From: a virus
Lineage: Duplodnaviria; Caudoviricetes
Length of the DNA stretch: 64,000 nt
Strand: one strand, 5' to 3'
IMG/VR virus record: IMGVR_UViG_3300024346_000003
Shown in pieces: positions 29,135 to 56,140 of the stretch. Numbering within the stretch: position 1 is the stretch's first letter; each line of letters begins with the position of its first letter. The notes under the pieces are model-generated. The model saw only the letters and a list, made by a program, of their open reading frames with translations. It was not told the origin of the DNA and searched no databases. The position numbers and the translations under genes were made by a program.

Positions 29135-29181
29135 ATAAGGTAGGTCGGAGTCTACTCTCCTATTACTTTCGTACTAGCCCC
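29135..29181 (-). ncRNA. structured small RNA family copy 1
   Basis: GGGGCTAG-TAC-GAAA-GTA-ATAGG-AGAGTAGACTCC-GACCTACC after own promoter. Confidence 0.65.
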
Positions 29182-29249
29182 TTTCTTTGTTATAACAAAT
29201 ATAGGAATAAAAAATGGTACTACCAAATTATAGTACCATTATTTTTAAT

Positions 29250-29483
29250 TTATTTTGATAAAGTTTTTAGCTCAGCTTTTATGCGTTTTGCCGTTTCACC
29301 TTTCCAAGTGTTAGCGTTACATAGGAAGTAAATAACGATACTTTTACCACTGTCCCAGCCGTACTTATCGTTAACCGATGTTAAGCTTTCCATAGCTTCT
29401 AAATAAGGTTTTGCGGCGTAATTAGGTTTAACCCAATCTTTTTTAATTTCACTTGCGATTTGATAAAGAGGTCTTGCGTTCAT
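29250..29483 (-). CDS. early hypothetical phage protein
   Basis: own promoter; AAKPYLEAM..YG.DSGKSIV.YFL.NANTWKGE motif. Confidence 0.75.
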   Translation of the reverse strand: MNARPLYQIASEIKKDWVKPNYAAKPYLEAMESLTSVNDKYGWDSGKSIVIYFLCNANTWKGETAKRIKAELKTLSK

Positions 29484-29546
29484 AATATACATTGTTTTAA
29501 ATTAGACAATACAAATATAAGTAATTTATTTCATATTTCCAAATAA

Positions 29547-29801
29547 TTACACAATTACTTTATTGTTATTTTCCCAAGCCCCCATATCTTTTGATTTATA
29601 GATTTTAAACCAATCGATATTTTGAATATCTTTTGAATCAACTAATTTACATGATAGATTAAATAATGAATGTGGCATTCTCCAATTAAGGGCATACCTA
29701 GATTTAATTGAATCTGATGCATTTTTAATCCATGTATGAAACAATTCTGTTCTTGTTTCAATATCATTAGCACCATTGAATATTTCCTCTGCGTTAAACA
29801 T
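29547..29801 (-). CDS. early hypothetical protein
   Basis: ATG after promoter module. Confidence 0.7.
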   Translation of the reverse strand: MFNAEEIFNGANDIETRTELFHTWIKNASDSIKSRYALNWRMPHSLFNLSCKLVDSKDIQNIDWFKIYKSKDMGAWENNNKVIV

Positions 29802-29900
29802 AATATATTGTTTTAAATTAGACAATACAAATATAAGAATACTATTTCAATTATCCTAATTATTTAACAAAAAAAAAGGGACTTTTTGTCCCCTTTAATT

Positions 29901-30176
29901 TTAGCTTTGTCCTTGTCGATAATTGTTACAATGGTTTCTATCAAATAGTTTATTTAATGTTTTGGTATGTTTTGTTTTTTTATGGTGTTTTTTATAGTTA
30001 AACCCATTTTTAGGTTTATCTTTTTTGATTTTAAAATTCTCAAAGATAATTGGTTTATCCTTTATTGAAATTTTGGTCACTATTGAATTTTCGATTTTTG
30101 TAACGTTTAGCATTTCAGTTGCTAACAATTGTGTAGTAAAAAACGACACTAACAAGAACATAATTAAATTTTTCAT
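29901..30176 (-). CDS. secreted/basic hypothetical protein
   Basis: signal-peptide-like N-terminus, Lys/His-rich tail. Confidence 0.65.
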   Translation of the reverse strand: MKNLIMFLLVSFFTTQLLATEMLNVTKIENSIVTKISIKDKPIIFENFKIKKDKPKNGFNYKKHHKKTKHTKTLNKLFDRNHCNNYRQGQS

Positions 30177-30239
30177 TTTTAAACGATTTAAATTAGACAT
30201 GAAACAAAGATAAGTAATTTATTTTAATCTACCAAACTT

Positions 30240-30410
30240 TTAGTAAGTTTTTTTTGATTTATTTTGACAATAAAAAGCATCAATAAATGTAGTTAAACCT
30301 ACAAGCATTCCAAATACTGAAATTGCACCAAGAATTGGTTCGTTAACATAAGCGCACAATGTGAACAAAGTTGTTGATAATACTAAAGTAATTAAAGAGA
30401 TAGTTTTCAT
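30240..30410 (-). CDS. 56-aa membrane protein (not in ORF track)
   Basis: hand translation MKTISLITLVLSTTLF..., two hydrophobic segments, own promoter. Confidence 0.65.
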   Translation of the reverse strand: MKTISLITLVLSTTLFTLCAYVNEPILGAISVFGMLVGLTTFIDAFYCQNKSKKTY

Positions 30411-30510
30411 AATGTATGTATTTTAATTAGACAATACAAATATAAGTAATTTATTTCAATCCACCAAATAAAATAGGATAATTATTTTATTTATTTTAAT
30501 CTTTTTTTTT

Positions 30511-30562
30511 ATAAGGTAGGTCGGAGTCTACTCTTCTGCTACCTTTTTGAAGTATCAGCCCC
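30511..30562 (-). ncRNA. structured small RNA family copy 2
   Basis: GGGGCTGA-TAC..GTA-GCAGA-AGAGTAGACTCC-GACCTACC after own promoter. Confidence 0.65.
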
Positions 30563-30630
30563 TTTTGTTAAAACAAAGATAAGGATAAGTTTTCACTTAT
30601 CCAAATCTTTTTTGATTTATTTTTGATTTT

Positions 30631-30900
30631 TTATTCAGCCACTAAAGTTAGTCTGTACTGCTCTAACTTTTCAGCGATGACATCAGCGCCACCCTTAACC
30701 CCGAAGTAACGTTTAACGTCTGTTATCTTCCAAAATCTGTGAGGTTTGATACCTTTGCTATATAACTTGCAATCTCTAATTGAAAGGATTAAGTTCCAAT
30801 ATGCTCTGCTAGTTTCAGCACCATTAACACTCAAACCATTTCCGAAGTCAGCTTCGAATTGCGTTCCTTTGATTTCCTTTAAAAATGTTTCCTTTTTCAT
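30631..30900 (-). CDS. early hypothetical protein
   Basis: ATG after promoter module. Confidence 0.7.
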   Translation of the reverse strand: MKKETFLKEIKGTQFEADFGNGLSVNGAETSRAYWNLILSIRDCKLYSKGIKPHRFWKITDVKRYFGVKGGADVIAEKLEQYRLTLVAE

Positions 30901-31050
30901 AATACGTTGTTTTAAATAGACAATACAAATATAAGTAATCTTTTTCAATATTCCAAATAAAATAGGATAATTATTTTATTTATTTTTTTTACTTAAAAAT
31001 TAGGTTATATCATTTATTATTCTTATCTTTGTTATGTACCAATAAGGTAA

Positions 31051-31096
31051 GGGGCTGAGCCGAGAGGAACAGAAGAGTAGACTCCGTCACGTCTAT
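31051..31096 (+). ncRNA. structured small RNA family copy 3
   Basis: GGGGCTGAG-CC-GAGA-GG-AACAGA-AGAGTAGACTCC-GTCACGTC after TATCTTTG promoter. Confidence 0.65.
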
Positions 31097-31183
31097 ACTT
31101 TTCCTTTGGATAAAAATGTTAAATAATTAGGATATCTTATTTATTATTATTATATTTGTAGTATCAATTTAAAATCAACAATT

Positions 31184-31402
31184 ATGAAAGTATTAAGAGA
31201 AGTTGGTGATGTTAAACTTAATGAAGGTCAACTAATGGCTAAAGGTTTAAATAATCTATACAACGAAAAAACAGGTCAATTATCATTATGGTTTGATAAT
31301 GAAGTTAAGGACTCCTTAATGAAATTACCCGATGATATATTTTTAGAAGTGGTTAGGGTTCATTTTGAACATGCCGAAGTTGGGCAATATAATCCAAACT
31401 AA
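31184..31402 (+). CDS. early hypothetical protein
   Basis: 72-aa ORF after TTAGGA..TATATTTG promoter. Confidence 0.7.
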   Translation: MKVLREVGDVKLNEGQLMAKGLNNLYNEKTGQLSLWFDNEVKDSLMKLPDDIFLEVVRVHFEHAEVGQYNPN

Positions 31403-31456
31403 TATAAAAGTAGATTAAATAAATAAGGGGGCTAAATTGCCCCCTTTCTTTCGTGC

Positions 31457-31476
31457 GTATACACGAATGTGTACAT
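31457..31476. repeat. palindromic (G/A)TATACAC-N4-GTGTA(C/T)AT element, copy 1 of 6
   Basis: also at 36692, 44355, 56542, 57067, 57529. Confidence 0.8.
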
Positions 31477-31488
31477 AGTGGGTGTATG

Positions 31489-31776
31489 CTATTGAGCACA
31501 CAACCCCCAAGGTTCAATCTTATCAATGTTTCGCCCATTCAAATTAAGTTCCTTGCAAATGAATTTAGCAAGTTTCTTATTTCCTGGTGTTCCTTCTGAA
31601 ATTTCACCCGTTTTAATTTGTTGGACAACGTATGACGGTTCCATACCCAATACTCTTGAACAAAACTTAACGTCTTGCCCTAAATAAAAAGACTTAGTTT
31701 TTGTCTTTGTTGATACAACCAACGACCAATTGTGGTCGAATCCGTAATTGCTAGTAATCTTAATTTCTGCGTTCAT
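31489..31776 (-). CDS. early hypothetical protein
   Basis: ATG after promoter module. Confidence 0.7.
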   Translation of the reverse strand: MNAEIKITSNYGFDHNWSLVVSTKTKTKSFYLGQDVKFCSRVLGMEPSYVVQQIKTGEISEGTPGNKKLAKFICKELNLNGRNIDKIEPWGLCAQ

Positions 31777-31850
31777 AATACTTTGTTTTAAAGTGACAAT
31801 ACAAATATAAGAAATAAAAACGACACTACCAAATGATAGTGCCATTATTT

Positions 31851-32081
31851 TTAAATTTCACAAATTCTTATTCCGAATTCCGTTTCAACATAAACTAGTT
31901 CTTCAATAGAACCACCTTTAACTTCATTAATAACGTAATCGAGTTCGTCTATTGGATAATCCCAAAGTGTTACATCTAAAATTTCTTCTGCAAATTCTTG
32001 TATGTCTTCAAGTTTTAGGTTTTTGGTTTCTTCATAACCTATTCGCTTTGCATACTCTTGTAATGAAATAGTTTCTAACAT
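31851..32081 (-). CDS. early hypothetical acidic protein
   Basis: own promoter. Confidence 0.7.
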   Translation of the reverse strand: MLETISLQEYAKRIGYEETKNLKLEDIQEFAEEILDVTLWDYPIDELDYVINEVKGGSIEELVYVETEFGIRICEI

Positions 32082-32339
32082 ACTTTCTAAGTTTTAAAGT
32101 GACAATACAAAGATACAAATATAAAATGGTATTTCCTAATTTAATTCCACTTTTTTTGTTTATGTTTATCTTTTCTTGTATAAGCTTTTTTTGACTTATG
32201 AACAGAATGACGCATTGCTTGTTGCAATTCGTGTTGAGTAATTTCGATAGTTTGAAGTTTCATAACTTATATTGTTTTAATTAGACAATACAAAGATAAG
32301 GATAACTTTTCAATTATCCAAATCTTTTGTTAATTATTT

Positions 32340-32657
32340 TTACATTGTATGAACATCATCTGTTATACTAAACGATATATCTCCATTTGCATCAACCTTG
32401 TTAGACACTAAACGAACAAGTGAGCTTTGCAAGTTACTTAATGAATTATACTTTTCGTATTTAATTCCTTTTGGTGTTCGTGCCCAAAGATTAGCACCCC
32501 ATGAAGAAATTTTGCAATCAGGTTTACCACTTCTATCTGCCAATACAACGTGAAACGTGTAAGGCTTATCAGATAAGTGAATGATAATTTGTTTTGCACC
32601 ATTATATAATTGGTCCAAAGTTACCTCTAATGATTTTAATGTGTTTAACGTTTTCAT
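32340..32657 (-). CDS. early hypothetical protein
   Basis: own promoter. Confidence 0.7.
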   Translation of the reverse strand: MKTLNTLKSLEVTLDQLYNGAKQIIIHLSDKPYTFHVVLADRSGKPDCKISSWGANLWARTPKGIKYEKYNSLSNLQSSLVRLVSNKVDANGDISFSITDDVHTM

Positions 32658-32745
32658 ATCTTATTGTTTTAAAGTGACAATACAAATATACAAAATAAAA
32701 ATGACACTACCAAATGATAGTGCCACTTTTTTTGTCAATCTAAAA

Positions 32746-33138
32746 CTAATCTAAGGTATTAAAGTAATCGTGTTTCATATTTGAAAGTGCTGAATATATG
32801 GTTTGGGAACCAATATCTTTACCTTCTTCATTTTTAATGGGTGTATTTCGTTTCAATATTTCCTTATATTCTTTATCATCGTAAATAAAACTTAAAAAGT
32901 CTATAATATGTCGTTTGCGATAATATTCAATTTGACTTGAAATGAATTTTTCAATAACTCTAGCAATTTGATAACTAGCTACTGTTGAAATAACACCAAT
33001 AATAATAACTAAACTTAACATAGCAAAAGTTGAGCTAAGTTCTATAAAAATTGGTGCGAACGATACTATTGTAATCGTTGTTGAAAATACAGCGATTATC
33101 GCTTTAAGTAATTTTGATTTTTCTACAAAGTTTAACAT
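32746..33138 (-). CDS. early membrane protein
   Basis: two N-terminal hydrophobic helices; own promoter. Confidence 0.7.
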   Translation of the reverse strand: MLNFVEKSKLLKAIIAVFSTTITIVSFAPIFIELSSTFAMLSLVIIIGVISTVASYQIARVIEKFISSQIEYYRKRHIIDFLSFIYDDKEYKEILKRNTPIKNEEGKDIGSQTIYSALSNMKHDYFNTLD

Positions 33139-33209
33139 AATTTTCTGTTTTAATTGGTTAAGACAAATATACAAATATAAAATGATATTTCCTAATTTAT
33201 TTTAAAGTA

Positions 33210-33287
33210 TTATTCATTTCCGTAGCCAGTTATTGATGCAATAATAAAAACCAACCCCATTACGATATAATCAAGTGCTTTTTTCAT
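33210..33287 (-). CDS. 25-aa single-TM micropeptide
   Basis: hand translation MKKALDYIVMGLVFIIASITGYGNE. Confidence 0.55.
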   Translation of the reverse strand: MKKALDYIVMGLVFIIASITGYGNE

Positions 33288-33289
33288 AA

Positions 33290-33373
33290 TTATCTTTTTA
33301 ATTCAATTATTAATGCTCCCACCAATACTGCAATAACTACTATTACTATTGCTGCAATAAAACCTACTACCAT
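33290..33373 (-). CDS. 27-aa single-TM micropeptide
   Basis: hand translation MVVGFIAAIVIVVIAVLVGALIIELKR. Confidence 0.55.
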   Translation of the reverse strand: MVVGFIAAIVIVVIAVLVGALIIELKR

Positions 33374-33376
33374 AAC

Positions 33377-33448
33377 TTAAGATTTTCTAATTTTAGTATC
33401 AAATGCTAAAACCACTGCGAATAAAAATATAACTGCTAATGCGCTCAT
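33377..33448 (-). CDS. 23-aa single-TM micropeptide
   Basis: hand translation MSALAVIFLFAVVLAFDTKIRKS; first ORF after promoter module. Confidence 0.6.
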   Translation of the reverse strand: MSALAVIFLFAVVLAFDTKIRKS

Positions 33449-33492
33449 AACTTTTTGTTTTAAAGTGACAATACAAATATAGGTAAAATATT

Positions 33493-33969
33493 CTACACTT
33501 CCAAATGTTTTACCAATATTTTTTTAATTTGTTTATTGTCACTTCTATCAAACGTATTATTCCATCTACCTTTGTATTTTGACTTAAGCATACTATCTAA
33601 AATAGTAAACGGCATATCAACAGAATGACAATGACTAAAAATTGGGTGCATTGTTAAATCATCGAAAAATCCTTTGCTATCAATATAAAACACTTTCTTT
33701 GATGTTTTAATTGTTACCATTACGTGTGACCAATCTGTTTTGAACAAATCAATTATAGCCTTATTTGCAATATGTCTGTTACTTTCGTAAACGCTATGTT
33801 CACGAACTAATAAAACCAATTCAGGTTTAAACCCTTTCTTAGTCAATACATTGTAAATGTGTTTTGCAACGAAACCACAACCACCACTATTAACATATCT
33901 AACTGAATTATCAATCTCATCGAATGATGATAATAAAGACTTTTTAATTTTAGCATTTAAGAATCCCAT
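33493..33969 (-). CDS. early hypothetical protein
   Basis: NSGGCG and SHVMV motifs, possibly papain-like Cys/His; own promoter. Confidence 0.7.
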   Translation of the reverse strand: MGFLNAKIKKSLLSSFDEIDNSVRYVNSGGCGFVAKHIYNVLTKKGFKPELVLLVREHSVYESNRHIANKAIIDLFKTDWSHVMVTIKTSKKVFYIDSKGFFDDLTMHPIFSHCHSVDMPFTILDSMLKSKYKGRWNNTFDRSDNKQIKKILVKHLEV

Positions 33970-34098
33970 AACTATTTGTTTTAAAGTGACAATACAAATA
34001 TAAGAATATAAAACGATATAACCTAATTTTTAATTAAAATAATTTATCTTATTTTATTAGGATATATCAAATATTTTCCTTACCTTTGTTTTGTCGAT

Positions 34099-34149
34099 GG
34101 GGCTGACACGAGAGTGGTAGTAGAGTAGACTCCTTGGGATACCTACTAC
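34099..34149 (+). ncRNA. structured small RNA family copy 4
   Basis: GGGGCTGA-CAC-GAGA-GTG-GTAGT-AGAGTAGACTCC after TACCTTTG promoter. Confidence 0.65.
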
Positions 34150-34218
34150 AAATTTGAGCCAACAAATAAAAAAGAGGGATTTCTCCCTCTTCTCATCAAC
34201 CAACTTAAAACAACAACT

Positions 34219-36154: not shown

Positions 36155-36306
36155 AACGTTTATGTTTTAATAATTAGACAATACAAATATAAGTAAACTA
36201 TTTCAATCTACCAAATAAAATAGGATAATTATTTATTTATTTTTTTGTATAAAAATTAGGATATATCATTTATTATCCTTACCTTTGTTATGTACCCGAT
36301 AGGTAT

Positions 36307-36355
36307 GGGCTGACACTCACAAGGTGGTAGTAGAGTAGACTCCGTCACGTCTATA
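36307..36355 (+). ncRNA. structured small RNA family copy 5
   Basis: GGGCTGA-CAC-TCACAAG-GTG-GTAGT-AGAGTAGACTCC-GTCACGTC. Confidence 0.65.
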
Positions 36356-36430
36356 TATGACCTGGACCAAAAAATACATTACAGTAAACTATTTAGTGTA
36401 AACTAAATTAGGAAATATGGTTTTATATTA

Positions 36431-36628
36431 TTATCTTTGTGACAATCTAATAAGTTGGCGTTGTATGAAATCAACATCTTTCTGACCATCATCAACCGAT
36501 TGTTCATCTTTTCGCTTATAAGCATTGAATAGTTTAGTCTGTGCTTTTTTAAGCATACTTAACCAACCTTCATACTCACTCATTCCTGAGTTTTGTAGTC
36601 CAACATTTTTATCTATTAATTTATCCAT
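36431..36628 (-). CDS. small hypothetical protein
   Basis: 65-aa ORF after ATATTTAT. Confidence 0.6.
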   Translation of the reverse strand: MDKLIDKNVGLQNSGMSEYEGWLSMLKKAQTKLFNAYKRKDEQSVDDGQKDVDFIQRQLIRLSQR

Positions 36629-37993: not shown

Positions 37994-38254
37994 TTAATTT
38001 GGCAAATCCAAATTTATATGAATATAAGACATAAAATAATCATGAGCGTTAATAAATTGGTTATTATATTCGTCCATAAAATCACTCAAACGTAATATCG
38101 TTATTTTATCATAAAGTGAAATATTATCGTTCAATTTTTGATTAATAGTTTCTACAACCCCAACTCTGCTATCAAATTTTTGATTTTCAATTTCCTCACA
38201 AGTTTTTCTTGCTCTATAACATTTAACCGAAATAAGTACCACACAAGTTTCCAT
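37994..38254 (-). CDS. early hypothetical protein
   Basis: 86-aa ORF. Confidence 0.65.
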   Translation of the reverse strand: METCVVLISVKCYRARKTCEEIENQKFDSRVGVVETINQKLNDNISLYDKITILRLSDFMDEYNNQFINAHDYFMSYIHINLDLPN

Positions 38255-38266
38255 AATAATATCCTT

Positions 38267-38467
38267 TTAAATAATAGTTAAAATGTCTTGTGGAACAATA
38301 TCAATCAATCCACCTTCATATTGAACATAAACCAATTCTTCATCATCACTTGGTTCTGAACATACAATAGCAATTGAACTCATTTCACTACGGAAAGGTT
38401 CTGTACATTCGTCAGTTAAATAACATTCAGCTATCTCAACTTTAATACCCTCTTTAAACTCGCTCAT
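38267..38467 (-). CDS. early hypothetical protein
   Basis: own promoter. Confidence 0.65.
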   Translation of the reverse strand: MSEFKEGIKVEIAECYLTDECTEPFRSEMSSIAIVCSEPSDDEELVYVQYEGGLIDIVPQDILTII

Positions 38468-39445: not shown

Positions 39446-39516
39446 TTGTTTAACAAAGATAAGTAATTTATTTTAAACTACCAAATCTTTTTGCAATTAT
39501 TTTTAATTTTTTTTTG

Positions 39517-39619
39517 TAGTCAGGACAGGATTCGAACCTGTGAATCCTCGGACTAAATACTAGACTACCACCTGAGGACCTCTTTCTAGTTAGCGTTAAT
39601 CCATCTCCGCCACCTGACT
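39517..39619 (-). ncRNA. tRNA-like RNA with non-canonical expanded middle (copy A)
   Basis: acceptor AGTCAGG/CCTGACT-A, T arm ACAGG-TTCGAAT-CCTGT, D-like arm; no canonical anticodon arm; 103 nt. Confidence 0.7.
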
Positions 39620-39706
39620 ATTTGTTATTCAAAGAACTTTAACAAAGATAAGTAATTTATTTTAAACTACCAAATCTTTTTGCAATTATTTTTAATTTTT
39701 TTTTTG

Positions 39707-39781
39707 TAGTCAAAATAGGATTCGAACCTATGTAACGATGTCTCTAATAGGACATCTGCTTTGCCACTCGGCCACTTGACT
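39707..39781 (-). ncRNA. tRNA-like RNA with 6-bp stem/8-nt anticodon-like loop (copy B)
   Basis: AGTCAAG/TTTGACT-A acceptor, GATGTC-CTATTAGA-GACATC arm, ATAGG-TTCGAAT-CCTAT T arm. Confidence 0.7.
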
Positions 39782-39867
39782 ATTTGTTATTCAAAGAACT
39801 TTAACAAAGATAAGTATTTTATTTCAATCTACCAAATCTTTTTGCAATTATTTTTAATTTATTTTTT

Positions 39868-39926
39868 GTGAGCGTTATGGAATCGAACCATACCGTATGA
39901 CTCGCCATTGCTAACCCTAGACGCTC
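39868..39926 (-). pseudogene. degenerate minimal tRNA-like element
   Basis: T arm TATGG-TTCGATT-CCATA and GAGCGT/ACGCTC acceptor-like stem; D/anticodon arms not recognisable. Confidence 0.4.
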
Positions 39927-39949
39927 TAGGCGTGCACACCTATTTGTAG

Positions 39950-40070
39950 TAGTCAGGACAGGATTCGAACCTGTATCAACAGAATGTGTAACTACCTGTT
40001 ATATTAAGCATTGTAGATTCGAACCACTCACTCTCTAGGCCTGTTGACTTACCAATTTGTCCACCTGACT
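39950..40070 (-). ncRNA. tRNA-like RNA with long insert (copy C)
   Basis: same acceptor/T arms; TCAACAG..CTGTTGA stem encloses ~65 nt including a second GGTTCGAATC; 121 nt. Confidence 0.7.
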
Positions 40071-40156
40071 ATTTGTTATTCAAAGAACTTTAACAAAGAT
40101 AAGTAAACTTTTCCAATCTACCAAATATTTTTGTAATTATTTTTAATTTATTTTTG

Positions 40157-40228
40157 TGACCCGACCAAGATTCGAACTTGGAATAGAAGATTAGAAATCT
40201 TCTGTGATATCCCTTTCACCATCGGGCC
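40157..40228 (-). tRNA. tRNA-Arg (UCU)
   Basis: cloverleaf; anticodon arm GAAGA-TTTCTAA-TCTTC; T arm CCAAG-TTCGAAT-CTTGG. Confidence 0.9.
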
Positions 40229-40291
40229 AAATAAGGGTTGTTCGAACTCCCTAAAAACCTCACCTAAGTTTTTTCTATGGATATAGAAAAA

Positions 40292-40368
40292 TGGTGGTCC
40301 AACTTGGACTCGAACCAAGGACTTCAACATTATGAGTGTTGCACTCTAACCAACTGAGTTATAAGACC
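40292..40368 (-). tRNA. tRNA with CAU anticodon (elongator Met or Ile2)
   Basis: cloverleaf; CAACA-CTCATAA-TGTTG; encoded CCA end. Confidence 0.9.
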
Positions 40369-40474
40369 GTTTGAGTCTTACCCCTCTAAACATTGATGCA
40401 TTATCTAGAGGGGTTTTTATTAAGCGAAGACCACCGCTATACAAATATAGTAATAAATATTTAATCTTGCAAAT

Positions 40475-40990
40475 TTATTTAAACATAATTGTTGCAATTG
40501 TTAAAGGTGTTCTTGGAATTGGTGTTGAACCACAATTAAACCCAATGATTTCAAACTGTGCAATATCTTTACTTCCATTGCTAATCGGTTCAATTGGTGA
40601 ATCGTGGAAAGCAATATCAGCACAATTAGCCATTTCAATTACAGAAATTGTAATTCTTTTACCACCCTTTGTTCTAATCGAAATTGTTTCATTCGAATTC
40701 TCACATTGAATAAATTGGTGTGGAAATTCTCTATTGAATATTGCGAACCCTTTGAACGCATAAATGATTTGCATCATCTGTGGTAAGAATTTTTCACTAT
40801 TCACATCGTTTGACTTGTTAGTCACGATACCGAAATTTTCATCAGGGTTGCAGTTGTTGATTGCCCAAATGAATGAAGCTAAATCTCTAACTGTTGCGGT
40901 GTAATTGTTATTCATTTTTACATAATAACCATCAGACAAAATAATGTCCTTAACATTGCTTGGAATCTCGTACTCAAATTGCTTGTTCAT
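40475..40990 (-). CDS. early hypothetical protein
   Basis: own promoter. Confidence 0.7.
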   Translation of the reverse strand: MNKQFEYEIPSNVKDIILSDGYYVKMNNNYTATVRDLASFIWAINNCNPDENFGIVTNKSNDVNSEKFLPQMMQIIYAFKGFAIFNREFPHQFIQCENSNETISIRTKGGKRITISVIEMANCADIAFHDSPIEPISNGSKDIAQFEIIGFNCGSTPIPRTPLTIATIMFK

Positions 40991-41064
40991 AATGTATGTG
41001 TTTTAATTAGACAAAACAAAGATAAGGATAAGTTTTCACTTATCCAAATCTTTTTTCAACTTTT

Positions 41065-41274
41065 TTAAATTGCTCTTGATTGCTCAATAAGTTTCAAAAT
41101 TTCCTCAACTGATTCAGCAACCTGATAACCACCATTGTTATGTGAATCGTGCTTTAATCTCGTACTTATACCATCTTCAAGTGGATACATACCTTGAATA
41201 CCATTGACACTTAAAACCATTTTTGTTTTTTTACGGTAATTGTTGGTTACTGAGATAAATCTAATGTTGCTCAT
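41065..41274 (-). CDS. early hypothetical protein
   Basis: own promoter. Confidence 0.7.
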   Translation of the reverse strand: MSNIRFISVTNNYRKKTKMVLSVNGIQGMYPLEDGISTRLKHDSHNNGGYQVAESVEEILKLIEQSRAI

Positions 41275-42570: not shown

Positions 42571-42719
42571 AATATATTGTTTTAAAGTTATACCACAAAG
42601 ATAAGGATAACTAATTACCCACACAACATACTATAGTTAGCATTTAAAATAATATAAAATAATATTAAATAAATTAGGATATGTCATTTATTATCCCTAC
42701 ATTTGTTTTGTCGATGGAC

Positions 42720-42769
42720 GGGCTGACACTCACAAGGTGGTAGTAGAGTAGACTCCGACCTACCTTATA
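42720..42769 (+). ncRNA. structured small RNA family copy 6
   Basis: GGGCTGA-CAC-TCACAAG-GTG-GTAGT-AGAGTAGACTCC-GACCTACC. Confidence 0.65.
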
Positions 42770-42888
42770 TTTTTTTTTAAATATATAAAAAAAATTTGCA
42801 AAGGTACAAAATAAAATCGACCTATGCAAATTTTTAATGAAAAAGTTATTAACAAAATGGTGGGGGTATTTTTCAACCCCCTTTCCAT

Positions 42889-43776: not shown

Positions 43777-43961
43777 AATAAAAAGTTTTAAATGATTAAC
43801 AGTACAAATATAATAATACTATTCCATATAAACAAATAAAAAACAATATATTTTTAATTTTTTTTTCATACCTTAATAATTGCGCACGCATGTATACAAA
43901 ATAAAAATGATATATCCTAATTTTTTTTGTTAAATTATCGCATATCGCAATACGCAATAAT

Positions 43962-44010
43962 GGCCTACCAAGGAGTCTACTCTCTCACATGCTTGCGACA
44001 TGCGACCCGT
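43962..44010 (-). ncRNA. structured small RNA family copy 7 (divergent)
   Basis: GGGTCG-CATG..CATG-TGAG-AGAGTAGACTCC-TTGG after own promoter. Confidence 0.6.
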
Positions 44011-44097
44011 CTTATTGACAATACAAATATAAAACAAAAAAACCACATATCCTAATAATACATGGTTTTTTTATTAACTATTTTATTCGTATCTTTG

Positions 44098-44383: not shown

Positions 44384-44701
44384 TTACCACTCAATCTTAA
44401 CCTCAAAGTCAAATGGTAAAGGCTCTTCTGATATTAAATACCCTATACGATTTACTATGTGGTAACCACTAACGTAATACATATTTGGTGCATACTCTCC
44501 CTCATCATCATCTGATTCACCGTCACCCTCAATGATTGTTATCACTCTATTTTGCTTTACCATTTCAGTAACAAAGTTAACTTCCTCACCATATGTTTCA
44601 AACATATTTCCGTCAAATGACGCATTGTCATCAATGTGGTTAGGGATAAGAGTTACCAACTCATCAAAGGTATCCTCAGTAATTTGCTTGATTGTTTCCA
44701 T
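44384..44701 (-). CDS. early hypothetical acidic protein
   Basis: own promoter. Confidence 0.7.
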   Translation of the reverse strand: METIKQITEDTFDELVTLIPNHIDDNASFDGNMFETYGEEVNFVTEMVKQNRVITIIEGDGESDDDEGEYAPNMYYVSGYHIVNRIGYLISEEPLPFDFEVKIEW

Positions 44702-46207: not shown

Positions 46208-46210
46208 GGA

Positions 46211-50378: not shown

Positions 50379-50394
50379 AATTAATTGATTTAAA

Positions 50395-50883: not shown

Positions 50884-50895
50884 AATAATATTGTT

Positions 50896-51273
50896 TTATA
50901 TTTTGTAGATTCCATAATCTACGGTTACCAAAGTATCTACAGGTAACCCATCTGCATTCTCACCATTTAACATCCAATGTGGTGTGACCCGTGGATTGTA
51001 ACTAACTCGCTCCCCTGTTATATCAGCTTGTACAAAATTACTGCTCCATGCAATGGTTAGTTCTTTACAAAGAACCCATGCGCAAACTACCTTCTCCCCT
51101 CCATCAAATATCTTCTGAGCGGTCTTCTTTTGATTCTTAAGGATGCACTCATGCATCAATAACTGAACTTCAGATGGGAAATGGTATTCAATTTTACCAT
51201 CAGGATACTGAACCTTCCATTTCATGAAATTCTTACCCCTAGCTAAATTGAATCTTACTTTGAAACTTTTCAT
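50896..51273 (-). CDS. early hypothetical phage protein
   Basis: VRFNLARGKNFMKWKV, VSYNPR motifs. Confidence 0.7.
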   Translation of the reverse strand: MKSFKVRFNLARGKNFMKWKVQYPDGKIEYHFPSEVQLLMHECILKNQKKTAQKIFDGGEKVVCAWVLCKELTIAWSSNFVQADITGERVSYNPRVTPHWMLNGENADGLPVDTLVTVDYGIYKI

Positions 51274-51342
51274 AACTTATATGTTTTAATTAGACCTTAT
51301 AAAGATAAGAATAATAATCCACAACCCCAAATAAATCATGGA

Positions 51343-51624
51343 TTATTTTACAACGTATTTATCTAAATTAGTATTATAAATAAGTTTGAAATTATGACTT
51401 GTTGCAAACGAAGTTATTTCTTTTTTTATTTTCTTTAATTCAGAACATTTTTTAGCATATTCTTTTGCCAATTCATCACGATATTTTGGTGGTGCATCAA
51501 CCCAATATTCAGCTATTTTAAATTCGACAAAATATCTAGCATCACATATATCGTTACCCAAATAACCAAATGATTCTAATTTGACTTTAATTTTATCGTG
51601 TAATGTATTTAATGAATTTTCCAT
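51343..51624 (-). CDS. early hypothetical protein
   Basis: 93-aa ORF. Confidence 0.65.
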   Translation of the reverse strand: MENSLNTLHDKIKVKLESFGYLGNDICDARYFVEFKIAEYWVDAPPKYRDELAKEYAKKCSELKKIKKEITSFATSHNFKLIYNTNLDKYVVK

Positions 51625-51633
51625 AAGATTATT

Positions 51634-51990
51634 TTATACCAAAACAATTCCTAAATCATCAAGTGTAATACAGTCACTTTCAATTTGGTCGCCACTGTGC
51701 CATTTGTTTTGTGCATAATAGTATACACTATTATTATACACAACTAATCTTTCAACATCAATTTTCCAGCTTTCAATATCCTCATCATCATCGTTAAGGT
51801 ATTCAACACTACCGTCTAAATCAATATTAATACTATTAATGAATTTATTGTTGTTAACAAGTTCCATTGCGTTCTTAATGTTATCGACATCTGTTGGTGT
51901 TAAATTGATTTTTAACTTATCAATTTCCATAGAATCTGAATACTCCATTGAATGAAATGCGATACCTTTTTCAATTACTAAATTTTCCAT
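51634..51990 (-). CDS. early hypothetical protein
   Basis: 118-aa ORF. Confidence 0.65.
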   Translation of the reverse strand: MENLVIEKGIAFHSMEYSDSMEIDKLKINLTPTDVDNIKNAMELVNNNKFINSINIDLDGSVEYLNDDDEDIESWKIDVERLVVYNNSVYYYAQNKWHSGDQIESDCITLDDLGIVLV

Positions 51991-52008
51991 GATAATATAT
52001 TTTAATTG

Positions 52009-52203
52009 TTATTTATCTTTTGCTATTACAAAATAAGAATTTAATTCTTCTTCTTGGTCATCCTGTGTTCCATCTTCATTATGTAATACAGGAAATTTTA
52101 AATATAAAAACTCCCAACCATCCTCATAAGAATCAAACTCATGAGCATTGAAACAATGATTATCAAACTCATCAACAATAATAAATTTATTAGACTTTTT
52201 CAT
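52009..52203 (-). CDS. early hypothetical protein
   Basis: own promoter. Confidence 0.65.
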   Translation of the reverse strand: MKKSNKFIIVDEFDNHCFNAHEFDSYEDGWEFLYLKFPVLHNEDGTQDDQEEELNSYFVIAKDK

Positions 52204-52245
52204 AAGGATATGTTTTAATTATTAGACATTATAAAGATACAAAAA

Positions 52246-52788
52246 CTATTTCACTTTTCCAAATAAAGTTTCAACTAATTTTGATTTATCTGTATGGAAT
52301 AAGTTAATCGCATTCGCTATTGAAATAGCTACACTACTATCTTCCTCCACCTCATCCAAATGCCAATAGCAAACGTGTGTAGGTTCCTTGTCGTCACCAT
52401 TGTCAATGTAGATATTTACACTCTCATTATCGATGGCCAACTTCATTCTATTTAAATTGAGGCCAAACATAACAGACTCCAATTCATCGCCAACAATTTG
52501 AAACCCTTGCTCATTGATAGAAACTACACCAAAACTTTCAAGTGAATCACCAATGGTCAAGTTACCCTCATCATCAGATACCAATTCATATATGCATAAC
52601 TGAAATGAATTAACCCCATTGTAAAATTCGTCAAACCAAATATTAATATCGTATTCTATATTTGTTTCCTCATCTTTGAATGTATCCCAATGGTCACTTT
52701 CCATACCCGTAACATCGATAACATATTCTTTACCTAAAAAGGTAAATGATAATCGTTTGTTTCTAGTGTTTAAAATTGCTGTTTCCAT
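52246..52788 (-). CDS. early hypothetical acidic protein
   Basis: own promoter. Confidence 0.7.
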   Translation of the reverse strand: METAILNTRNKRLSFTFLGKEYVIDVTGMESDHWDTFKDEETNIEYDINIWFDEFYNGVNSFQLCIYELVSDDEGNLTIGDSLESFGVVSINEQGFQIVGDELESVMFGLNLNRMKLAIDNESVNIYIDNGDDKEPTHVCYWHLDEVEEDSSVAISIANAINLFHTDKSKLVETLFGKVK

Positions 52789-52874
52789 GATAATATTGTT
52801 TTAATTATTAGACAATACAAATATAATAAATAAAAGTGACACTACCAAATTATAATGTCACTTTTATTGTCTAA

Positions 52875-53612
52875 TTAAACAATAGCTTCTAATACGAAAC
52901 CACTAGTTAAAGCTTCTTTGTTTTTTTCAGCACCACCTTTGCCCGTAATGTTTTTGAATTTCAATCCAACAATTACATTCTTATCATCTAAGAAACGCAA
53001 GTCGTTATCATCACCATTGATAACCTTATAACCGTTATACGTTTCAGGTAACTTTGTAAATACCATTGCTACATTGTGACCCGCTTGTAATAAGCTTAAA
53101 GATATTTCATGATTTTCCTCGGAACGTGAAAATGTTAAATGATAATTCTTTGGTAACTCCTTTGCAAATCTAGTGTAATTCTTTGTGTAGTCATAGAATT
53201 GAACATTAGGAAACGTATCAAAGATTGTTTTACCATTGGACGTTTTTTGCTTCTCAAATGAAATATCACTTGTACCATTCAAACGTATTGCCAGGATAAA
53301 ATCAGTATCAGCAACTTTCTTTTCTAATTTGCCAATTTCAACTACCAACTTATCTAAAAATGCAATTCTATCTGAAAGATAAAATTCTGTTTTTTCAGTT
53401 CTACCATTCTTAACACTTTGGTAAATTCCACCAAAACCACTTTCGAATAAACATGCACTAGCACAACCTTTACTCGCCATGGGACAAATGTTTACCCCCT
53501 TAGAATTTTGTGTAAATGGTGACATGTACAAAATGAAAGTCTTGTAACCTTTCTTTTCACCTTTAATCGTTTTAGCATTGTTAAACGATAATAAACTTTT
53601 CTTGTAACTCAT
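52875..53612 (-). CDS. phage Gp88-like protein (CxxxxxxCxxxC)
   Basis: ICPMASKGCASACL, RLNGTSDI, FYDYTK, LTFSRSE, GDDNDLRFLD. Confidence 0.75.
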   Translation of the reverse strand: MSYKKSLLSFNNAKTIKGEKKGYKTFILYMSPFTQNSKGVNICPMASKGCASACLFESGFGGIYQSVKNGRTEKTEFYLSDRIAFLDKLVVEIGKLEKKVADTDFILAIRLNGTSDISFEKQKTSNGKTIFDTFPNVQFYDYTKNYTRFAKELPKNYHLTFSRSEENHEISLSLLQAGHNVAMVFTKLPETYNGYKVINGDDNDLRFLDDKNVIVGLKFKNITGKGGAEKNKEALTSGFVLEAIV

Positions 53613-53715
53613 AATAATATGTTTTAATTAATTAGACAATACAAATATAAAACAAAAAAGTGAGACTTCCAAATAAAATCTCACTTTTTTTAAAATTAAT
53701 TATATACTATACTAT

Positions 53716-54792
53716 TTAACCCTTTCCATTTCTTACATCATGCAAATAATCAATCTCATCATTTGTACTTTGAGCAAACAATTGCTTTAACATTTGCTCC
53801 TCCATACCAACTTGTCGTAAAATGTATTCCATGGTTTCACCGTCAACCTCAATCACTTTCAACTTACCAATAATATCCCTTACCAAATCATGTGTATGTT
53901 GTGTTTGACATAATACTGTTGGTGCATCAGCAAACGTATTTTTTCGCCAATCCATATCAGCCTCTTCATAGGTACCATCTTTTTTCCAAAAACCTACTAC
54001 CAAAATATCATCACATCCACCCATGGTAATATTTATTGATTCACAAAACTTACCATACTCTACCAAATCAAATTTAACAATATCGAATAAGTAATTCTCA
54101 TCGTCAATAACTTCACCTTCACCATAACCAATTACCTCAATTACATTTCCGTCCTTGTCGCAACTAATATGCCCCCATGAACTTTCAAATGACATGAATT
54201 CCTCTCTAATAATTGGAACCTTGCTCAAATCAATTTGTTTCTTTTTCACAATTGAAATAAACTTATTATCCAATACTATATAATTTGTCTTACCAAATGG
54301 AAAACCATTGTCATTTTCAGTAATAATAACCCCCAAATCAAGCAACTCATGAAATTCACTTTCATAAACATCACCAATGATTTCTGTATTATCAGCATTA
54401 CCAATTGTATAAACTTCTTCGGGAAAATCATATTCTATATTTCCAACTACAATTGGTTTAAGTTCTTCTTTTGGGAACAAATTATACCAATTATCAACTA
54501 TGGCCATATCATCATTCAACCCCAATGCAATTCTAACATCGTCAGAACAATTCTGAATTAAATCATGGTCATTAACACTCATGTTAATTGGTAGTGACTT
54601 ATCAACGTCCTCAGTGTATTTAGAAATTGACGTATTAATCTCTTTCGCACTACGAACCGCACATTCAATGCGTTTCTCGACCTCATCAATTTTAGCACCC
54701 AAATCATTCAATGCTATATCAACTTCATCATCCTTTTGGAATAAATCCCAACGCTTCATTGTTTCAACCAATTCATTAAATTGCTTTTTCAT
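53716..54792 (-). CDS. early hypothetical protein
   Basis: ATG after promoter module. Confidence 0.75.
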   Translation of the reverse strand: MKKQFNELVETMKRWDLFQKDDEVDIALNDLGAKIDEVEKRIECAVRSAKEINTSISKYTEDVDKSLPINMSVNDHDLIQNCSDDVRIALGLNDDMAIVDNWYNLFPKEELKPIVVGNIEYDFPEEVYTIGNADNTEIIGDVYESEFHELLDLGVIITENDNGFPFGKTNYIVLDNKFISIVKKKQIDLSKVPIIREEFMSFESSWGHISCDKDGNVIEVIGYGEGEVIDDENYLFDIVKFDLVEYGKFCESINITMGGCDDILVVGFWKKDGTYEEADMDWRKNTFADAPTVLCQTQHTHDLVRDIIGKLKVIEVDGETMEYILRQVGMEEQMLKQLFAQSTNDEIDYLHDVRNGKG

Positions 54793-54842
54793 AATATATG
54801 TTTTAATAATTAGACAATACAAATGTAAGTAAAAGAATTCAC

Positions 54843-55097
54843 TTATCCTAATTCTTCAACATTTTTATTTGTTGCGTCATAAGATACAATTCTGAAATCA
54901 CCAAATAAGATACCTTTATAGTATACAGCACTATTGTTAAATCTTATCAAATCAACCTCACCACCATCTACTACCAATCGCAAATGACCATATGTCCATT
55001 GGAAACTATCTATCGGGCCAACCACAATAAATGTGTCATCAATGTGATTCTCTTTTGTCTCAGGATTTAACCTATTGAAAAATTCTATCTGTAACAT
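54843..55097 (-). CDS. early hypothetical protein
   Basis: 84-aa ORF. Confidence 0.6.
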   Translation of the reverse strand: MLQIEFFNRLNPETKENHIDDTFIVVGPIDSFQWTYGHLRLVVDGGEVDLIRFNNSAVYYKGILFGDFRIVSYDATNKNVEELG

Positions 55098-55115
55098 AAT
55101 AATATAGTTTTATAT

Positions 55116-55343
55116 TTAATCATTAATATTTTCCCAACCTTCCAACTCAGTTAATTCCATACCAATTGGTCTTAACCCATAAGGCTCGGCATTCAAATAG
55201 TAATCAAAGGTATAACCCAAAGGCTCTAACTCATCTAACAATCTACCTAACTCATGGTAATCATCAGCATCCTCATCAAATGTTACCAATACGTCTTGAA
55301 CTTCACTAGGAATCAATTCGGGTGTTTCAAATAAATCTTTCAT
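55116..55343 (-). CDS. early hypothetical protein
   Basis: LGYTFDYYL..EPYGL motif; own promoter. Confidence 0.7.
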   Translation of the reverse strand: MKDLFETPELIPSEVQDVLVTFDEDADDYHELGRLLDELEPLGYTFDYYLNAEPYGLRPIGMELTELEGWENIND

Positions 55344-55402
55344 AATATATGTTTTAATAATTAGACAATACAAATATAAGAATATAAAATGATATATCCT
55401 AA

Positions 55403-55939
55403 TTAATTTTCAACAAATTTTAAAAGAAATTTATCACTAAACTTACCCCCATTATGTGCCTTGCAACATTTAGCACACGCATACGTTCTTGATACCTTTC
55501 TATGCTTCGGACTTTCATGCCCACAATTATCACATGTAAGACTATATTTCGCTTTAGGTAAATTAACAGTTTCACCATCATAACATCTATTACCATCACA
55601 ACCAATCTGCTTTGCAATAGATTTCCAATTATGACCATGACCCCTACCATTTTTAATTCCATAAACCTCAACAGAAAATGCATGTGCCATTTCATGTAAT
55701 ATAGTATTCTGTATTCTACTATCTATCTTATCCAAATTCTCACTACATAAAGGTAATGATAAACTAATCTTCTTTTGAATATAATGACAAGTACCAAATG
55801 CACGTTTCCTATTGTTAAACTCAAATCGATAACCCAAACCTTTAGCACTCACACTATGTGTACCACTATATGTAGTAAACGTAAATTCTTTTGACATCAA
55901 CTCATCAACCAATACTCTTACATCATTTAACGTTCCCAT
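55403..55939 (-). CDS. SprT-like metalloprotease
   Basis: TILHEMAHA, GHGHNWK, C-terminal CDNC/CAKC zinc ribbon. Confidence 0.85.
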   Translation of the reverse strand: MGTLNDVRVLVDELMSKEFTFTTYSGTHSVSAKGLGYRFEFNNRKRAFGTCHYIQKKISLSLPLCSENLDKIDSRIQNTILHEMAHAFSVEVYGIKNGRGHGHNWKSIAKQIGCDGNRCYDGETVNLPKAKYSLTCDNCGHESPKHRKVSRTYACAKCCKAHNGGKFSDKFLLKFVEN

Positions 55940-56091
55940 AACTTATATTGTTTTAATTAGACATTACAAATATAATAATACTATTCCATATATCCTAATT
56001 TTTATACAAAAAAAATTTAAAATTATTTTACAAAATAATTAGGTTATCTCATTTATTATCCCTACCTTTGTTATGTACCCGATAGGGATAC

Positions 56092-56140
56092 GGGCTGATA
56101 CTCAAAAGGTATCTGGAGCGTAGACTCCAACCTACCTATA
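56092..56140 (+). ncRNA. structured small RNA family copy 8
   Basis: GGGCTGA-TAC-TCAAAAG-GTA-TCTGGAGCGTAGACTCC-AACCTACC after TACCTTTG promoter. Confidence 0.6.

Follow-up and report, generated by a model that had tools for sequence, protein, structure and literature searches.

The window analysed here, a 64-kb stretch of phage DNA, very probably carries eight paralogous, stand-alone genes for a single structured non-coding RNA of ~70–110 nt, which adopts a four-part fold and is predicted to be transcribed by the main RNA polymerase of the host from strong phage promoters situated among small early-type genes. By the measure of Rfam 15 and the literature searched, this small RNA family is previously undescribed. 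The eight loci match no Rfam 15 family, either at the gathering score or at E ≤ 10, in agreement with the earlier note on this DNA, which had not recognised the family; the loci of the cultured phages Larrie and phiST likewise match none at E ≤ 1, and the only matches to the motif string in the literature searched were primers and constructs unrelated to it.

Eight dispersed small-RNA genes

Exact matches to GTAGACTCC fall at 29147, 30523 and 43972 on the minus strand and at 31077, 34125, 36335, 42748 and 56120 on the plus strand, and nowhere else in the 64-kb window. Allowing up to one mismatch yields 11 matches, a number reached by none of 100 shuffles, and the R1 covariance model returns exactly eight copies in the window, at 48–76 bits, the next match scoring 10.5 bits. 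These are the eight places at which the copies had originally been noticed. The elements and their promoters are as follows.

29073..29104, plus strand: convergent full promoter facing copy 1
29131..29182, minus strand: copy 1, RNA core and 16 nt of tail (GAAA loop; tail GACCUACC; R1 63.4 bits)
29196..29227, minus strand: copy 1 promoter (TTTGGTAGT-15-TATATTTG; overlaps the terminator-like hairpin of the upstream gene)
30507..30563, minus strand: copy 2, RNA core and tail (tail GACCUACC; R1 66.3 bits)
30574..30605, minus strand: copy 2 promoter
31000..31031, plus strand: copy 3 promoter
31050..31101, plus strand: copy 3, RNA core and tail (GAGA loop; tail GUCACGUC; R1 61.7 bits)
34057..34088, plus strand: copy 4 promoter
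34098..34149, plus strand: copy 4, RNA core and tail (GAGA loop; tail UUGGGAUA; R1 48.1 bits)
~34170–34195: GC hairpin terminator 3' of copy 4
36256..36287, plus strand: copy 5 promoter
36305..36359, plus strand: copy 5, RNA core and tail (tail GUCACGUC; R1 65.5 bits)
42674..42705, plus strand: copy 6 promoter
42718..42772, plus strand: copy 6, RNA core and tail (tail GACCUACC; R1 76.2 bits)
42799..42830, minus strand: convergent full promoter facing copy 6 (TTTGCATAG-15-TACCTTTG; same fixed spacing in relatives)
43956..44010, minus strand: copy 7, RNA core and tail (stem base UCG/UGA; tail UUGGUAGG; R1 48.9 bits)
44024..44055, minus strand: copy 7 promoter
56039..56070, plus strand: copy 8 promoter
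56090..56144, plus strand: copy 8, RNA core and tail (GAGC subtype, U-U mismatch at the stem base; tail AACCUACC; R1 61.5 bits)
56174..56205, minus strand: convergent full promoter facing copy 8

The TAnnTTTG element assigned to each copy by the earlier note proves to be part of a complete bipartite promoter of the Bacteroidota type (-33 box TT[TA]GG...., 15-nt spacer, TAnnTTTG) 5' of all eight copies, separated from the RNA element by a gap of 10–25 nt. The copies are dispersed, lying 0.5–13 kb apart, each with its own promoter, and none of the eight heads an ORF, as had been claimed; the 72-aa ORF found 3' of copy 3 is served by a promoter of its own (31127–31158). Two copies carry additional hairpins, copy 3 having a predicted 5' hairpin (GUACC..GGUA) ahead of the core and copy 7 an 11-bp hairpin 3' of its core and tail. 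Each copy is separately promoted, lacks an ORF, has a defined end and is conserved at the level of RNA, and so has the properties of an independent small-RNA gene, the transcripts themselves being predicted from sequence.

Expression early in infection may be expected from the host-type promoters and the position of the copies among small early-type genes. The surrounding region contains ~60 near-identical cassettes of promoter and 5'-UTR, some with a hairpin overlapping the -33 box. No sequencing run classed as RNA contains the 6-kb stretch that was tested. Element-bearing contigs of relatives occur in one freshwater metatranscriptome, in which RNA is not separable from DNA, and in some unlabelled runs, although contigs cannot show transcription, strand or ends.

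A covarying hairpin beside a near-invariant junction

Read 5' to 3', the RNA consists of an optional 5' hairpin, A-N-GGG, the P2 hairpin, the 13-nt near-invariant strand N-AGAGUAGACUCC, R-N-C and a variable tail. Some 20 nucleotides are near-invariant within a core of 29–45 nt, and the shortest copies, of 28–29 nt, comprise the central hairpin, the conserved 3' strand and then variable sequence. The GGG and AGAGUAGACUCC are 94–100% conserved, whereas the length of P2 is free (4 to >10 bp) and its loop, usually a GNRA-like cap, is variable. This contrast, taken together with correlated, subtype-specific changes within the junction (A27>U with A32>C; G5>C with G31>A), makes the junction look like the functional part of the molecule. 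The constant scaffold with variable parts described by the earlier note corresponds to a near-invariant junction with a variable P2 and tail, and the GNRA loops that it had seen in three copies are those of copies 1, 3 and 4.

The compensatory changes first noticed in the eight copies hold for the whole helix, and covariation among homologues is strong. All six modelled pairs of P2 change on both sides (90 cells), which none of 500 shuffles equalled, and the covariation score is 0.438 as against 0.02–0.08 for slid controls. On the named strand G·U pairs outnumber A·C 85 to 5, which indicates that the P2 fold is selected in RNA, and on the strand originally proposed. The same figures bear on the idea that the repeats are a DNA-level site, such as an operator or a recombination or packaging site, with an incidental hairpin. 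A repeated and highly conserved 12-mer does adjoin the promoters, but changes that preserve pairing and an excess of G·U on one strand only are the signature of an RNA, and a DNA site can be given almost no credence.

P2 begins directly 3' of the GGG, its CUG pairing with YAG, and the base of the stem exchanges CUG/CAG for UCG/CGA, UCA/UGA or CCG/UGG. It follows that CUGA is part of the stem: of the 5' GGGCUGA motif and ensuing hairpin put forward by the earlier note, the GGG and the hairpin stand but the CUGA is not a free 5' motif. Nor can it be a free hammerhead core, since the CUG is paired. A hammerhead ribozyme was rejected because this pairing covaries, no NGA follows CUGA and no Rfam model matches.

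Other pairings and motifs were also considered for the fold. Pairing of the tail with GUAGAC (P3) gave a mean duplex energy of -3.7 kcal/mol; shuffled tails gave -2.6 and scrambled probes -2.7 ± 1.0, a difference of ~1 SD that is not significant. By-eye checks of an extension of P1 by leader–tail pairing, and of pairing between the tail and the 3' arm of P2, were inconsistent across copies. Kink-turn, C/D-box, sarcin–ricin and tetraloop–receptor readings were dropped because the strands that they take to be free are base-paired or else no partner strand is present. The candidate pairing GGG:UCC (GGG:ACUCC) shows no variation on either side apart from rare variants (GGU, GUG, AGG and GGC; CUAC), and these are uncompensated.

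These results are relevant to the proposal that the GGG, the base of P2 and the invariant strand build a self-contained fold, either a new small self-cleaving ribozyme or an aptamer that might, for example, soak up a nucleotide signal, possibly with a pseudoknot formed by GGG:UCC and GUAG:YUAY. The ~20 near-invariant nucleotides of so small a core, the GNRA-like loops and the presence of several copies per phage genome would all suit such a fold; hammerhead and twister ribozymes also occur in multiple copies per phage genome. Moreover, the correlated junction changes hint at tertiary contacts, and A>G changes in GUAGAC are still compatible with the proposed tail pairing. However, no known ribozyme or riboswitch model matches, the hammerhead-like CUGA is not free, the tail–GUAGAC pairing is only ~1 SD better than that of scrambled probes, and GGG:UCC lacks compensation. 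A fixed loop–receptor contact is hard to reconcile with a P2 of free length, and there is no regulated gene downstream. We regard a ribozyme or aptamer as quite unlikely.

Orientation, neighbours and convergent promoters

Among 121 genomic contexts the element is head-on within the gene array in 60, co-directional in 42 and at a divergent junction in 16. Such free orientation relative to neighbouring genes points to a trans-acting product and not to a leader. The next gene 3' of the element carries its own promoter, and U runs or hairpin terminators follow copies, many of which have ordinary terminators. A riboswitch or other cis-acting leader was rejected on these grounds, that is, on the 60 of 121 head-on contexts and the separate promoters of downstream genes. 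An antitermination RNA of the put/nut type would fit neither the orientation statistics nor the layout of the eight loci, and a type III antitoxin RNA (ToxI-like) was discarded because the copies are dispersed with their own promoters instead of forming tandem head-to-tail repeats.

A broader class of cis-acting transcription device would include a put/nut-like modifier of polymerase, or a head-on promoter unit that blocks read-through of early genes or primes replication at a downstream AT-rich stretch. It would account for the position of the element, always within ~25 nt of the predicted transcription start, for the half of the copies that lie head-on to the gene array, and for the AT tracts of U runs and A runs and the convergent promoters downstream of a subset. 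Set against this are the free orientation to neighbours, the separately promoted downstream genes and the ordinary terminators after many copies, and simple promoter interference would have no need of such strong conservation of RNA sequence and structure. A cis-acting device is very unlikely.

The convergent promoters are a feature of about a fifth to a third of copies. The earlier note reported them at copies 1 and 6, where both are indeed full promoters, but its list was incomplete, as copy 8 is faced by one too. A transcript from the promoter at 29073..29104 would run antisense through copy 1 and encounter a hairpin and U run near 29215–29250. In relatives the convergent full promoters stand at a fixed distance, with CAAA at +42/43, and they are also present in phiST and Larrie.

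DUF932 and GP88 genes are frequent neighbours of the element. Copy 6 lies ~120 nt past the stop of a DUF932 gene, with which it is convergent, and this position is kept in many related phages. Neither gene product was retained as a partner protein, as such a neighbourhood is expected at a density of one element per 1–3 kb and neither gene occurs in phiST or Larrie. A TnpB-like protein was also dismissed, its genes being present in two jumbo relatives and absent from the Cbastviruses. No partner was found by association in the window, which is 64 kb of a genome of >270 kb.

Recurring tails

The eight copies fall into 3' tail classes, as previously described, and among distant phages NNCCUACC, NNCACGUC, AUGGUNCN and NCNGAACC recur. 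One P2 type occurs with different tails. These observations raise the possibility of seed-pairing regulators, in which the junction would be a constant handle, serving a chaperone or stability, and the 8-nt block 3' of ACUCC with its flank would be a seed for host or phage RNAs that differs by copy. The sharing of tail classes by distant phages, the joining of the same P2 type to different tails and a constant-then-variable layout that resembles guide RNAs all speak for it, and the copies with convergent promoters have a perfectly complementary partner. On the other hand, outside the elements themselves the window has no excess of sequences complementary to the tail cores (GGTAGG, 13 occurrences as against 9.2 expected; GACGTG, 4 as against 7.9), the few tail classes offer little diversity for a guide system, and eight nucleotides are too short to test without a host genome. 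It also counts against seed-pairing that Hfq is not known from Bacteroidota. On balance such regulators are possible but unlikely.

Distribution among phages and hosts

The homologues number 146 distinct sequences in all, from phage and metagenome contigs; the contigs that carry the RNA number at least 17 from IMG/VR phages and 55 from metagenomes. Related carriers are marine and lake phages that hold several to thirteen copies at a time, and high densities are seen, with 9 elements across a complete genome of 288 kb, 13 within 40 kb and 12 within 11.7 kb. The carriers range from 78-kb siphoviruses to jumbo phages, and the window itself derives from a giant phage of Flavobacteria-type hosts with a genome of >270 kb. 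The cultured carriers are Tenacibaculum phage Larrie and, more weakly, Cellulophaga phage phiST. Megablast and blastn of GenBank phages with whole regions gave no match, and Larrie was recovered from them only by a 60-nt core query at E ≤ 10.

An R1 search of 302 sampled host genomes (151 of Flavobacteriaceae and 151 of Bacteroidota) yielded neither a relative nor array-like multiple matches. Homologues are thus confined to phages (IMG/VR, metagenomic and cultured) relative to this sample, in line with the phage-encoded family of the earlier note. A 17-base pattern scan of genome contigs had returned at least 120 matches, where ~1,660 are expected by chance, and the matches inspected lacked both promoter and hairpin, the one exception being a mis-binned phage contig (L032); for both reasons the scan is no evidence of cellular copies.

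The same search weighs on a further alternative, that the RNA mimics a CRISPR repeat or guide RNA and serves as an RNA anti-CRISPR or as a decoy for another RNA-guided host protein. RNA anti-CRISPRs exist, and the minimal copies of 28–29 nt do resemble a repeat with the start of a spacer. No R1 relative or array, however, is present in the genomes sampled. Furthermore, a repeat mimic reproduces the repeat of its host, but the hairpin here is unconstrained in sequence. The guide RNAs of dCas12f-sigmaE in Flavobacteriia were considered and set aside, as the text of the paper describing them shows no shared motif and the sampled host genomes no R1 match. On this sample of genomes we regard mimicry of this kind as highly improbable.

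A possible mode of action

The reading that we favour, if only tentatively, is of a trans-acting RNA whose junction docks one protein and which serves in many copies as a decoy, sponge or scaffold, with antisense control in a subset. Its working part would be the invariant junction, made up of the GGG, the first pairs of P2 and AGAGUAGACUCC, and this would be the docking site of one specific protein. A host factor seems a more probable partner than a phage protein, because no protein is common to the window and both cultured carriers, from which TnpB-like genes are also absent. With so many copies, the RNA could become abundant enough in early infection to titrate the protein or put it to another use, and where a convergent promoter is present, a counter-transcript complementary along its full length may switch the RNA off or be switched off in turn.

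The high copy dosage supports a decoy or scaffold. Against it, the diversity of P2 and tail among copies of one genome exceeds what dosage alone would need, the recurring tail classes NNCCUACC and NNCACGUC could be functional seeds, and the 13-nt invariant strand and GNRA loops would fit just as well a core that folds by itself for catalysis or ligand binding. A bolder and rather unlikely extension would see in the junction the active centre of a novel type of very small functional RNA. This RNA would either cleave itself or bind a ligand, or else be a decoy with high affinity for a host protein of immunity or RNA processing, and flavobacterial phages would mass-produce it from up to a dozen early genes as an RNA-based weapon of takeover or counter-defence, with some copies checked by antisense RNA.

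Comparison with known systems

To our knowledge, phage small RNAs are poorly known beyond a few model phages, with almost nothing described for phages of Flavobacteriia, and the RNA biology of Bacteroidota differs from that of E. coli in making no use of Shine–Dalgarno sequences and having no known Hfq. Flavobacteriia are major players in marine and lake carbon turnover. Comparative support for the present family is unusually strong, with 146 distinct sequences, covariation of a whole helix, a 13-nt invariant strand and extreme copy number, and its presence in two cultivable phage–host pairs makes its function directly testable. If the RNA turns out to work as a decoy, as a guide or by catalysis, phage takeover or counter-defence in Bacteroidota would gain a layer based on RNA.

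Among known systems, the multicopy paralogous sRNAs of Bacteroidota (the canonical intergenic sRNA genes of Bacteroides, e.g. GibS) are similar in standing alone behind -33/-7 promoters, lacking an ORF and having several diverged paralogues. The phage RNA differs in sequence and fold, in its far higher copy density and invariant 13-nt strand, and in its absence from the 302 Bacteroidota genomes. RNA anti-CRISPRs (Racr; solitary repeat mimics) are also phage-borne and promoter-driven, with a hairpin and conserved flank, and are likewise possible decoys of a host protein; here, however, the sampled genomes hold no similar host repeat, the hairpin varies freely and the copies are many and not one or few. 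HK022 put and lambda nut (boxB) are likewise structured phage RNAs that lie close to a promoter, occur repeatedly and have loops of the GNRA type, but they act in cis ahead of operons, whereas half of the present elements point against their neighbours and none heads an operon. Counter-transcript pairs such as P22 sar, ColE1 RNA I/RNA II and R1 CopA resemble the subset with convergent promoters ~100 bp apart, from which two complementary short transcripts are expected, yet the partner promoter is found at only a fifth to a third of copies while the fold of the sense RNA is common to all. Finally, the setting of ~60 promoter and 5'-UTR cassettes, some bearing hairpins, recalls the PeSL (promoter-early stem-loop) cassettes of T4-type phages; PeSLs precede protein genes, whereas the RNA element is a separate predicted transcription product with a covarying fold.

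Small RNA genes in the window

The earlier note had placed eight small RNA elements in the window, and the 9-mer GTAGACTCC occurs there exactly eight times, at those positions.

Positions of the 9-mer, by copy
29147 (-), copy 1
30523 (-), copy 2
31077 (+), copy 3
34125 (+), copy 4
36335 (+), copy 5
42748 (+), copy 6
43972 (-), copy 7
56120 (+), copy 8

On the strands originally assigned, all eight copies share a uniform layout of promoter, leader, A-N-GGG, hairpin, N-AGAGUAGACUCC and variable tail. In every copy the promoter, which is of the Bacteroidota housekeeping type, comprises a -33-type box (TTAGGATAT, TTTGGTAGT or TTTGGATAA), a 15-nt spacer and TAnnTTTG, and a leader of 10-25 nt follows. 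As had been claimed, no ORF lies downstream of any copy; the 72-aa ORF behind copy 3 has its own promoter, as do the genes behind copies 1, 2 and 7. A covariance model built from 33 family members (R1) likewise recovers these eight copies and no others, scoring them at 48-76 bits; the best score elsewhere in the window is 10.5 bits.

The window is AT-rich (30% GC) and has genes for NAMPT, thymidylate synthase, a ClpB-like ATPase and thioredoxin, together with a tRNA cluster and dozens of small uncharacterised genes; its DNA is detected in marine and lake metagenomes, and a search for close relatives among GenBank phages found none. Between 28200 and 56000 lie some 60 near-identical promoter cassettes (TT[TA]GG....-15 nt-TAnnTTTG) on both strands, one preceding nearly every small gene, and most lead into a common 5' UTR (UAUUGUCUAAUUAAAACA or UAUUGUCACUUUAAAACA) and then ATG. 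These cassettes resemble the PeSL cassettes of T4-type phages, and the -33 boxes of several are embedded in a terminator-like hairpin of the preceding gene. Within the tRNA cluster each tRNA has a separate promoter, and three share an identical leader, UUAAAGUUCUUUGAAUAACAAAUAGUCA.

Further features of the window
39450-40400 (-) and 61909-62021 (-), tRNA cluster
39517-39619, tRNA-like gene, oversized anticodon region with a 47-nt insert
39707-39781, tRNA-like gene, oversized anticodon region with a 9-nt loop and, according to ARAGORN, a four-base anticodon
39950-40070, tRNA-like gene, oversized anticodon region with a 55-nt insert
61909-62021 (-), likewise over-long
39454 (-) to ~39380, full promoter (TTTGGTAGT-15-TATCTTTG) followed by neither an ORF nor a recognised tRNA; its product may be another small RNA
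36408-36439 (+), second plus-strand promoter directly behind copy 5 with no plus-strand ORF after it, aimed into the 3' end of minus-strand ORF 36431-36628; predicted transcript antisense

Structure of the RNA

The hairpin between GGG and the near-invariant 3' strand (P2) starts immediately behind the GGG. In most copies it opens with the pairs C-G, U-A and G-Y; the alternatives at these three positions are UCG/CGA, UCG/UGA, CUA/UAG, UCA/UGA, CCG/UGG and CAG/CUG. The compensatory changes noticed earlier hold in an alignment of 66 sequences, where all six modelled P2 pairs show two-sided change (90 cells) and 95% of cells are paired. None of 500 shuffles reached the observed values, and sliding the partner columns lowers the covariation score from 0.438 to 0.02-0.08; the seed set agrees. 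Since G.U outnumbers A.C by 85 to 5, selection on the fold acts at the RNA level, on the strand chosen in the earlier note. The P2 covariation and this imbalance both contradict a site acting at the level of DNA, a reading that is scarcely credible.

The smallest form of P2 is CUGA-GNRA-UCAG and the largest exceed 10 bp; its fourth position is usually a purine-purine mismatch, and its cap is usually GNRA-like (GAGA, GAAA, GUAA or UC[RNAA]G). In the flanking strands, 95% of sequences carry A at position 1, conservation of both GGG and AGAGUAGACUCC is 94-100%, and the tail opens with R-N-C. Linked changes at the junction mark two subtypes: GAGC, to which copy 8 belongs, combines A27>U with A32>C, and GGCA combines G5>C with G31>A. 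The GGG:UCC helix proposed earlier is possible; both its sides are invariant, and rare variants lack compensation. The tail (CUAC, GUCUAU, YUAU) could plausibly pair with GUAGAC, and three A>G variants remain compatible with this pairing; it was not significantly better than controls. Many copies also have a 5' hairpin, in which a start-proximal GUC/GUACC is paired with a 3' arm. The helix varies freely in length and in sequence but the strands of the junction stay constant, and for this reason the junction appears to be the functional surface; that it forms a ribozyme or aptamer core is quite unlikely.

Distribution among phages

About 17 IMG/VR contigs contain between them 30 stretches that match an exact core pattern, 27 of these stretches having the promoter-hairpin-tail layout, and a 25-base pattern matched 56 metagenome contigs, TARA ocean and lake samples included (chance expectation ~0.02). 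Applied to the pattern-found loci, R1 gave 161 and 107 matches, amounting to 146 distinct sequences.

Copies per genome or fragment
Complete 288-kb genome with terminal repeats, 9 (all in the first 36 kb)
40-kb fragment, 13
53 kb, 9
18 kb, 6
11.7 kb, 12

A less strict pattern, used to look for cellular copies in 596 Gb of genomes from bacteria and archaea, gave chance-type matches with promoter and hairpin absent, the sole exception being a phage-like contig that had been assigned to a MAG. R1 gave no credible match in the genomes of 151 Flavobacteriaceae and 151 other Bacteroidota.

Two cultured phages of the genus Cbastvirus carry the element, so that its function is directly testable. In Tenacibaculum phage Larrie (ON950054.1) four matches fall at 16.9-19.5 kb, where small genes are separated by unannotated gaps that hold the matches; in Cellulophaga phage phiST (NC_020842.1) there are three, which are weaker and lie near the genome ends.

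Copies in phiST (loci L274-L276)
NC_020842.1 76446-76620
NC_020842.1 78281-78450
NC_020842.1 1560-1730

A further conserved block, GCGCACCCUCGCNCCUUCGG, is common to all three phiST copies, ~30 nt behind the core. Another conserved sequence, the 15-mer AATCATTCTAAATAA, occurs in either orientation ~30 nt downstream of the element in some relatives (loci L008, L018, L024, L030, L167, L170 and L174); it is absent from the window. In one metagenomic copy (L263, 622-714) a 38-nt insertion inside P2 holds a partial second copy (..GUAGUAGGAGGGACUCCAACAC..) and is a nested duplication. The jumbo-phage relatives G001 and G002 each have two TnpB/Cas12f-like genes (open frames of 213-443 aa), unlinked to the small RNA loci.

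TnpB/Cas12f-like loci
G001 40935-41135 and 72826-73029
G002 38075-38275 and 44415-44612

Orientation and convergent promoters

Orientation in 121 distinct contexts
Opposed to a co-directional gene array, 60
Along the gene array, 42
At divergent junctions, 16
At convergent junctions, 3

The positions themselves are evolutionarily stable. The copy-6 type, convergent and ~120 nt past the stop of a DUF932 gene, is kept in more than 12 relatives at 74-96% protein identity, and this placement recurs in two relatives at ~50%. Free orientation combined with stable position fits independent genes with a trans-acting product, and fits neither leaders nor mobile repeats. A device acting in cis on transcription is very unlikely.

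The convergent promoters described for copies 1 and 6 are present, and the list can be extended: a complete one also faces copy 8. At least 11 of 66 relatives are faced by a complete convergent promoter at a fixed distance (CAAA at +42/43 after ACUCC). Convergent promoters also face all three phiST copies (TATCTTTA, ~90 nt downstream) and one Larrie copy. From such promoters a fully complementary counter-transcript would be expected. Other copies have ordinary hairpin terminators 30-50 nt farther downstream. Two Larrie copies stand face-to-face ~50 nt apart with overlapping tails (ON950054.1 ~16960-17060; L268 1140-1225), and these tails (ACCGAACC... and GUCACGUC...) are predicted to be mutually antisense.

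Function

The family comprises phage-restricted genes, high in copy number and free in orientation, which have their own promoters, lack coding capacity and specify a conserved, strand-specific RNA fold. The most economical reading, held tentatively, is a specific protein-binding platform serving as decoy, sponge or scaffold. The host polymerase would transcribe the genes early, the RNA would act in trans, and the many gene copies would supply the dose of decoy or scaffold. No protein of the window is common to all carriers, so a host partner seems likelier than a phage one. Seed pairing through the tail classes is unlikely, and the lack of enrichment for tail targets within the window argues against it; mimicry of CRISPR or guide RNAs is highly improbable.

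Comparison with known systems

Nothing in Rfam 15 matches the small RNA, in keeping with the earlier failure to recognise a family, and literature searches found no description of it. The original observation is confirmed and extended, and its interpretation supported in part. What is new about the family is its sequence, fold, copy density and restriction to phages; that it represents a new functional class is doubtful. Phage-encoded small RNA genes are already known in kind, and in kind the family resembles phage decoy RNAs and the sRNA genes that form multicopy families in Bacteroidota; the subset with convergent promoters resembles classical counter-transcript pairs.
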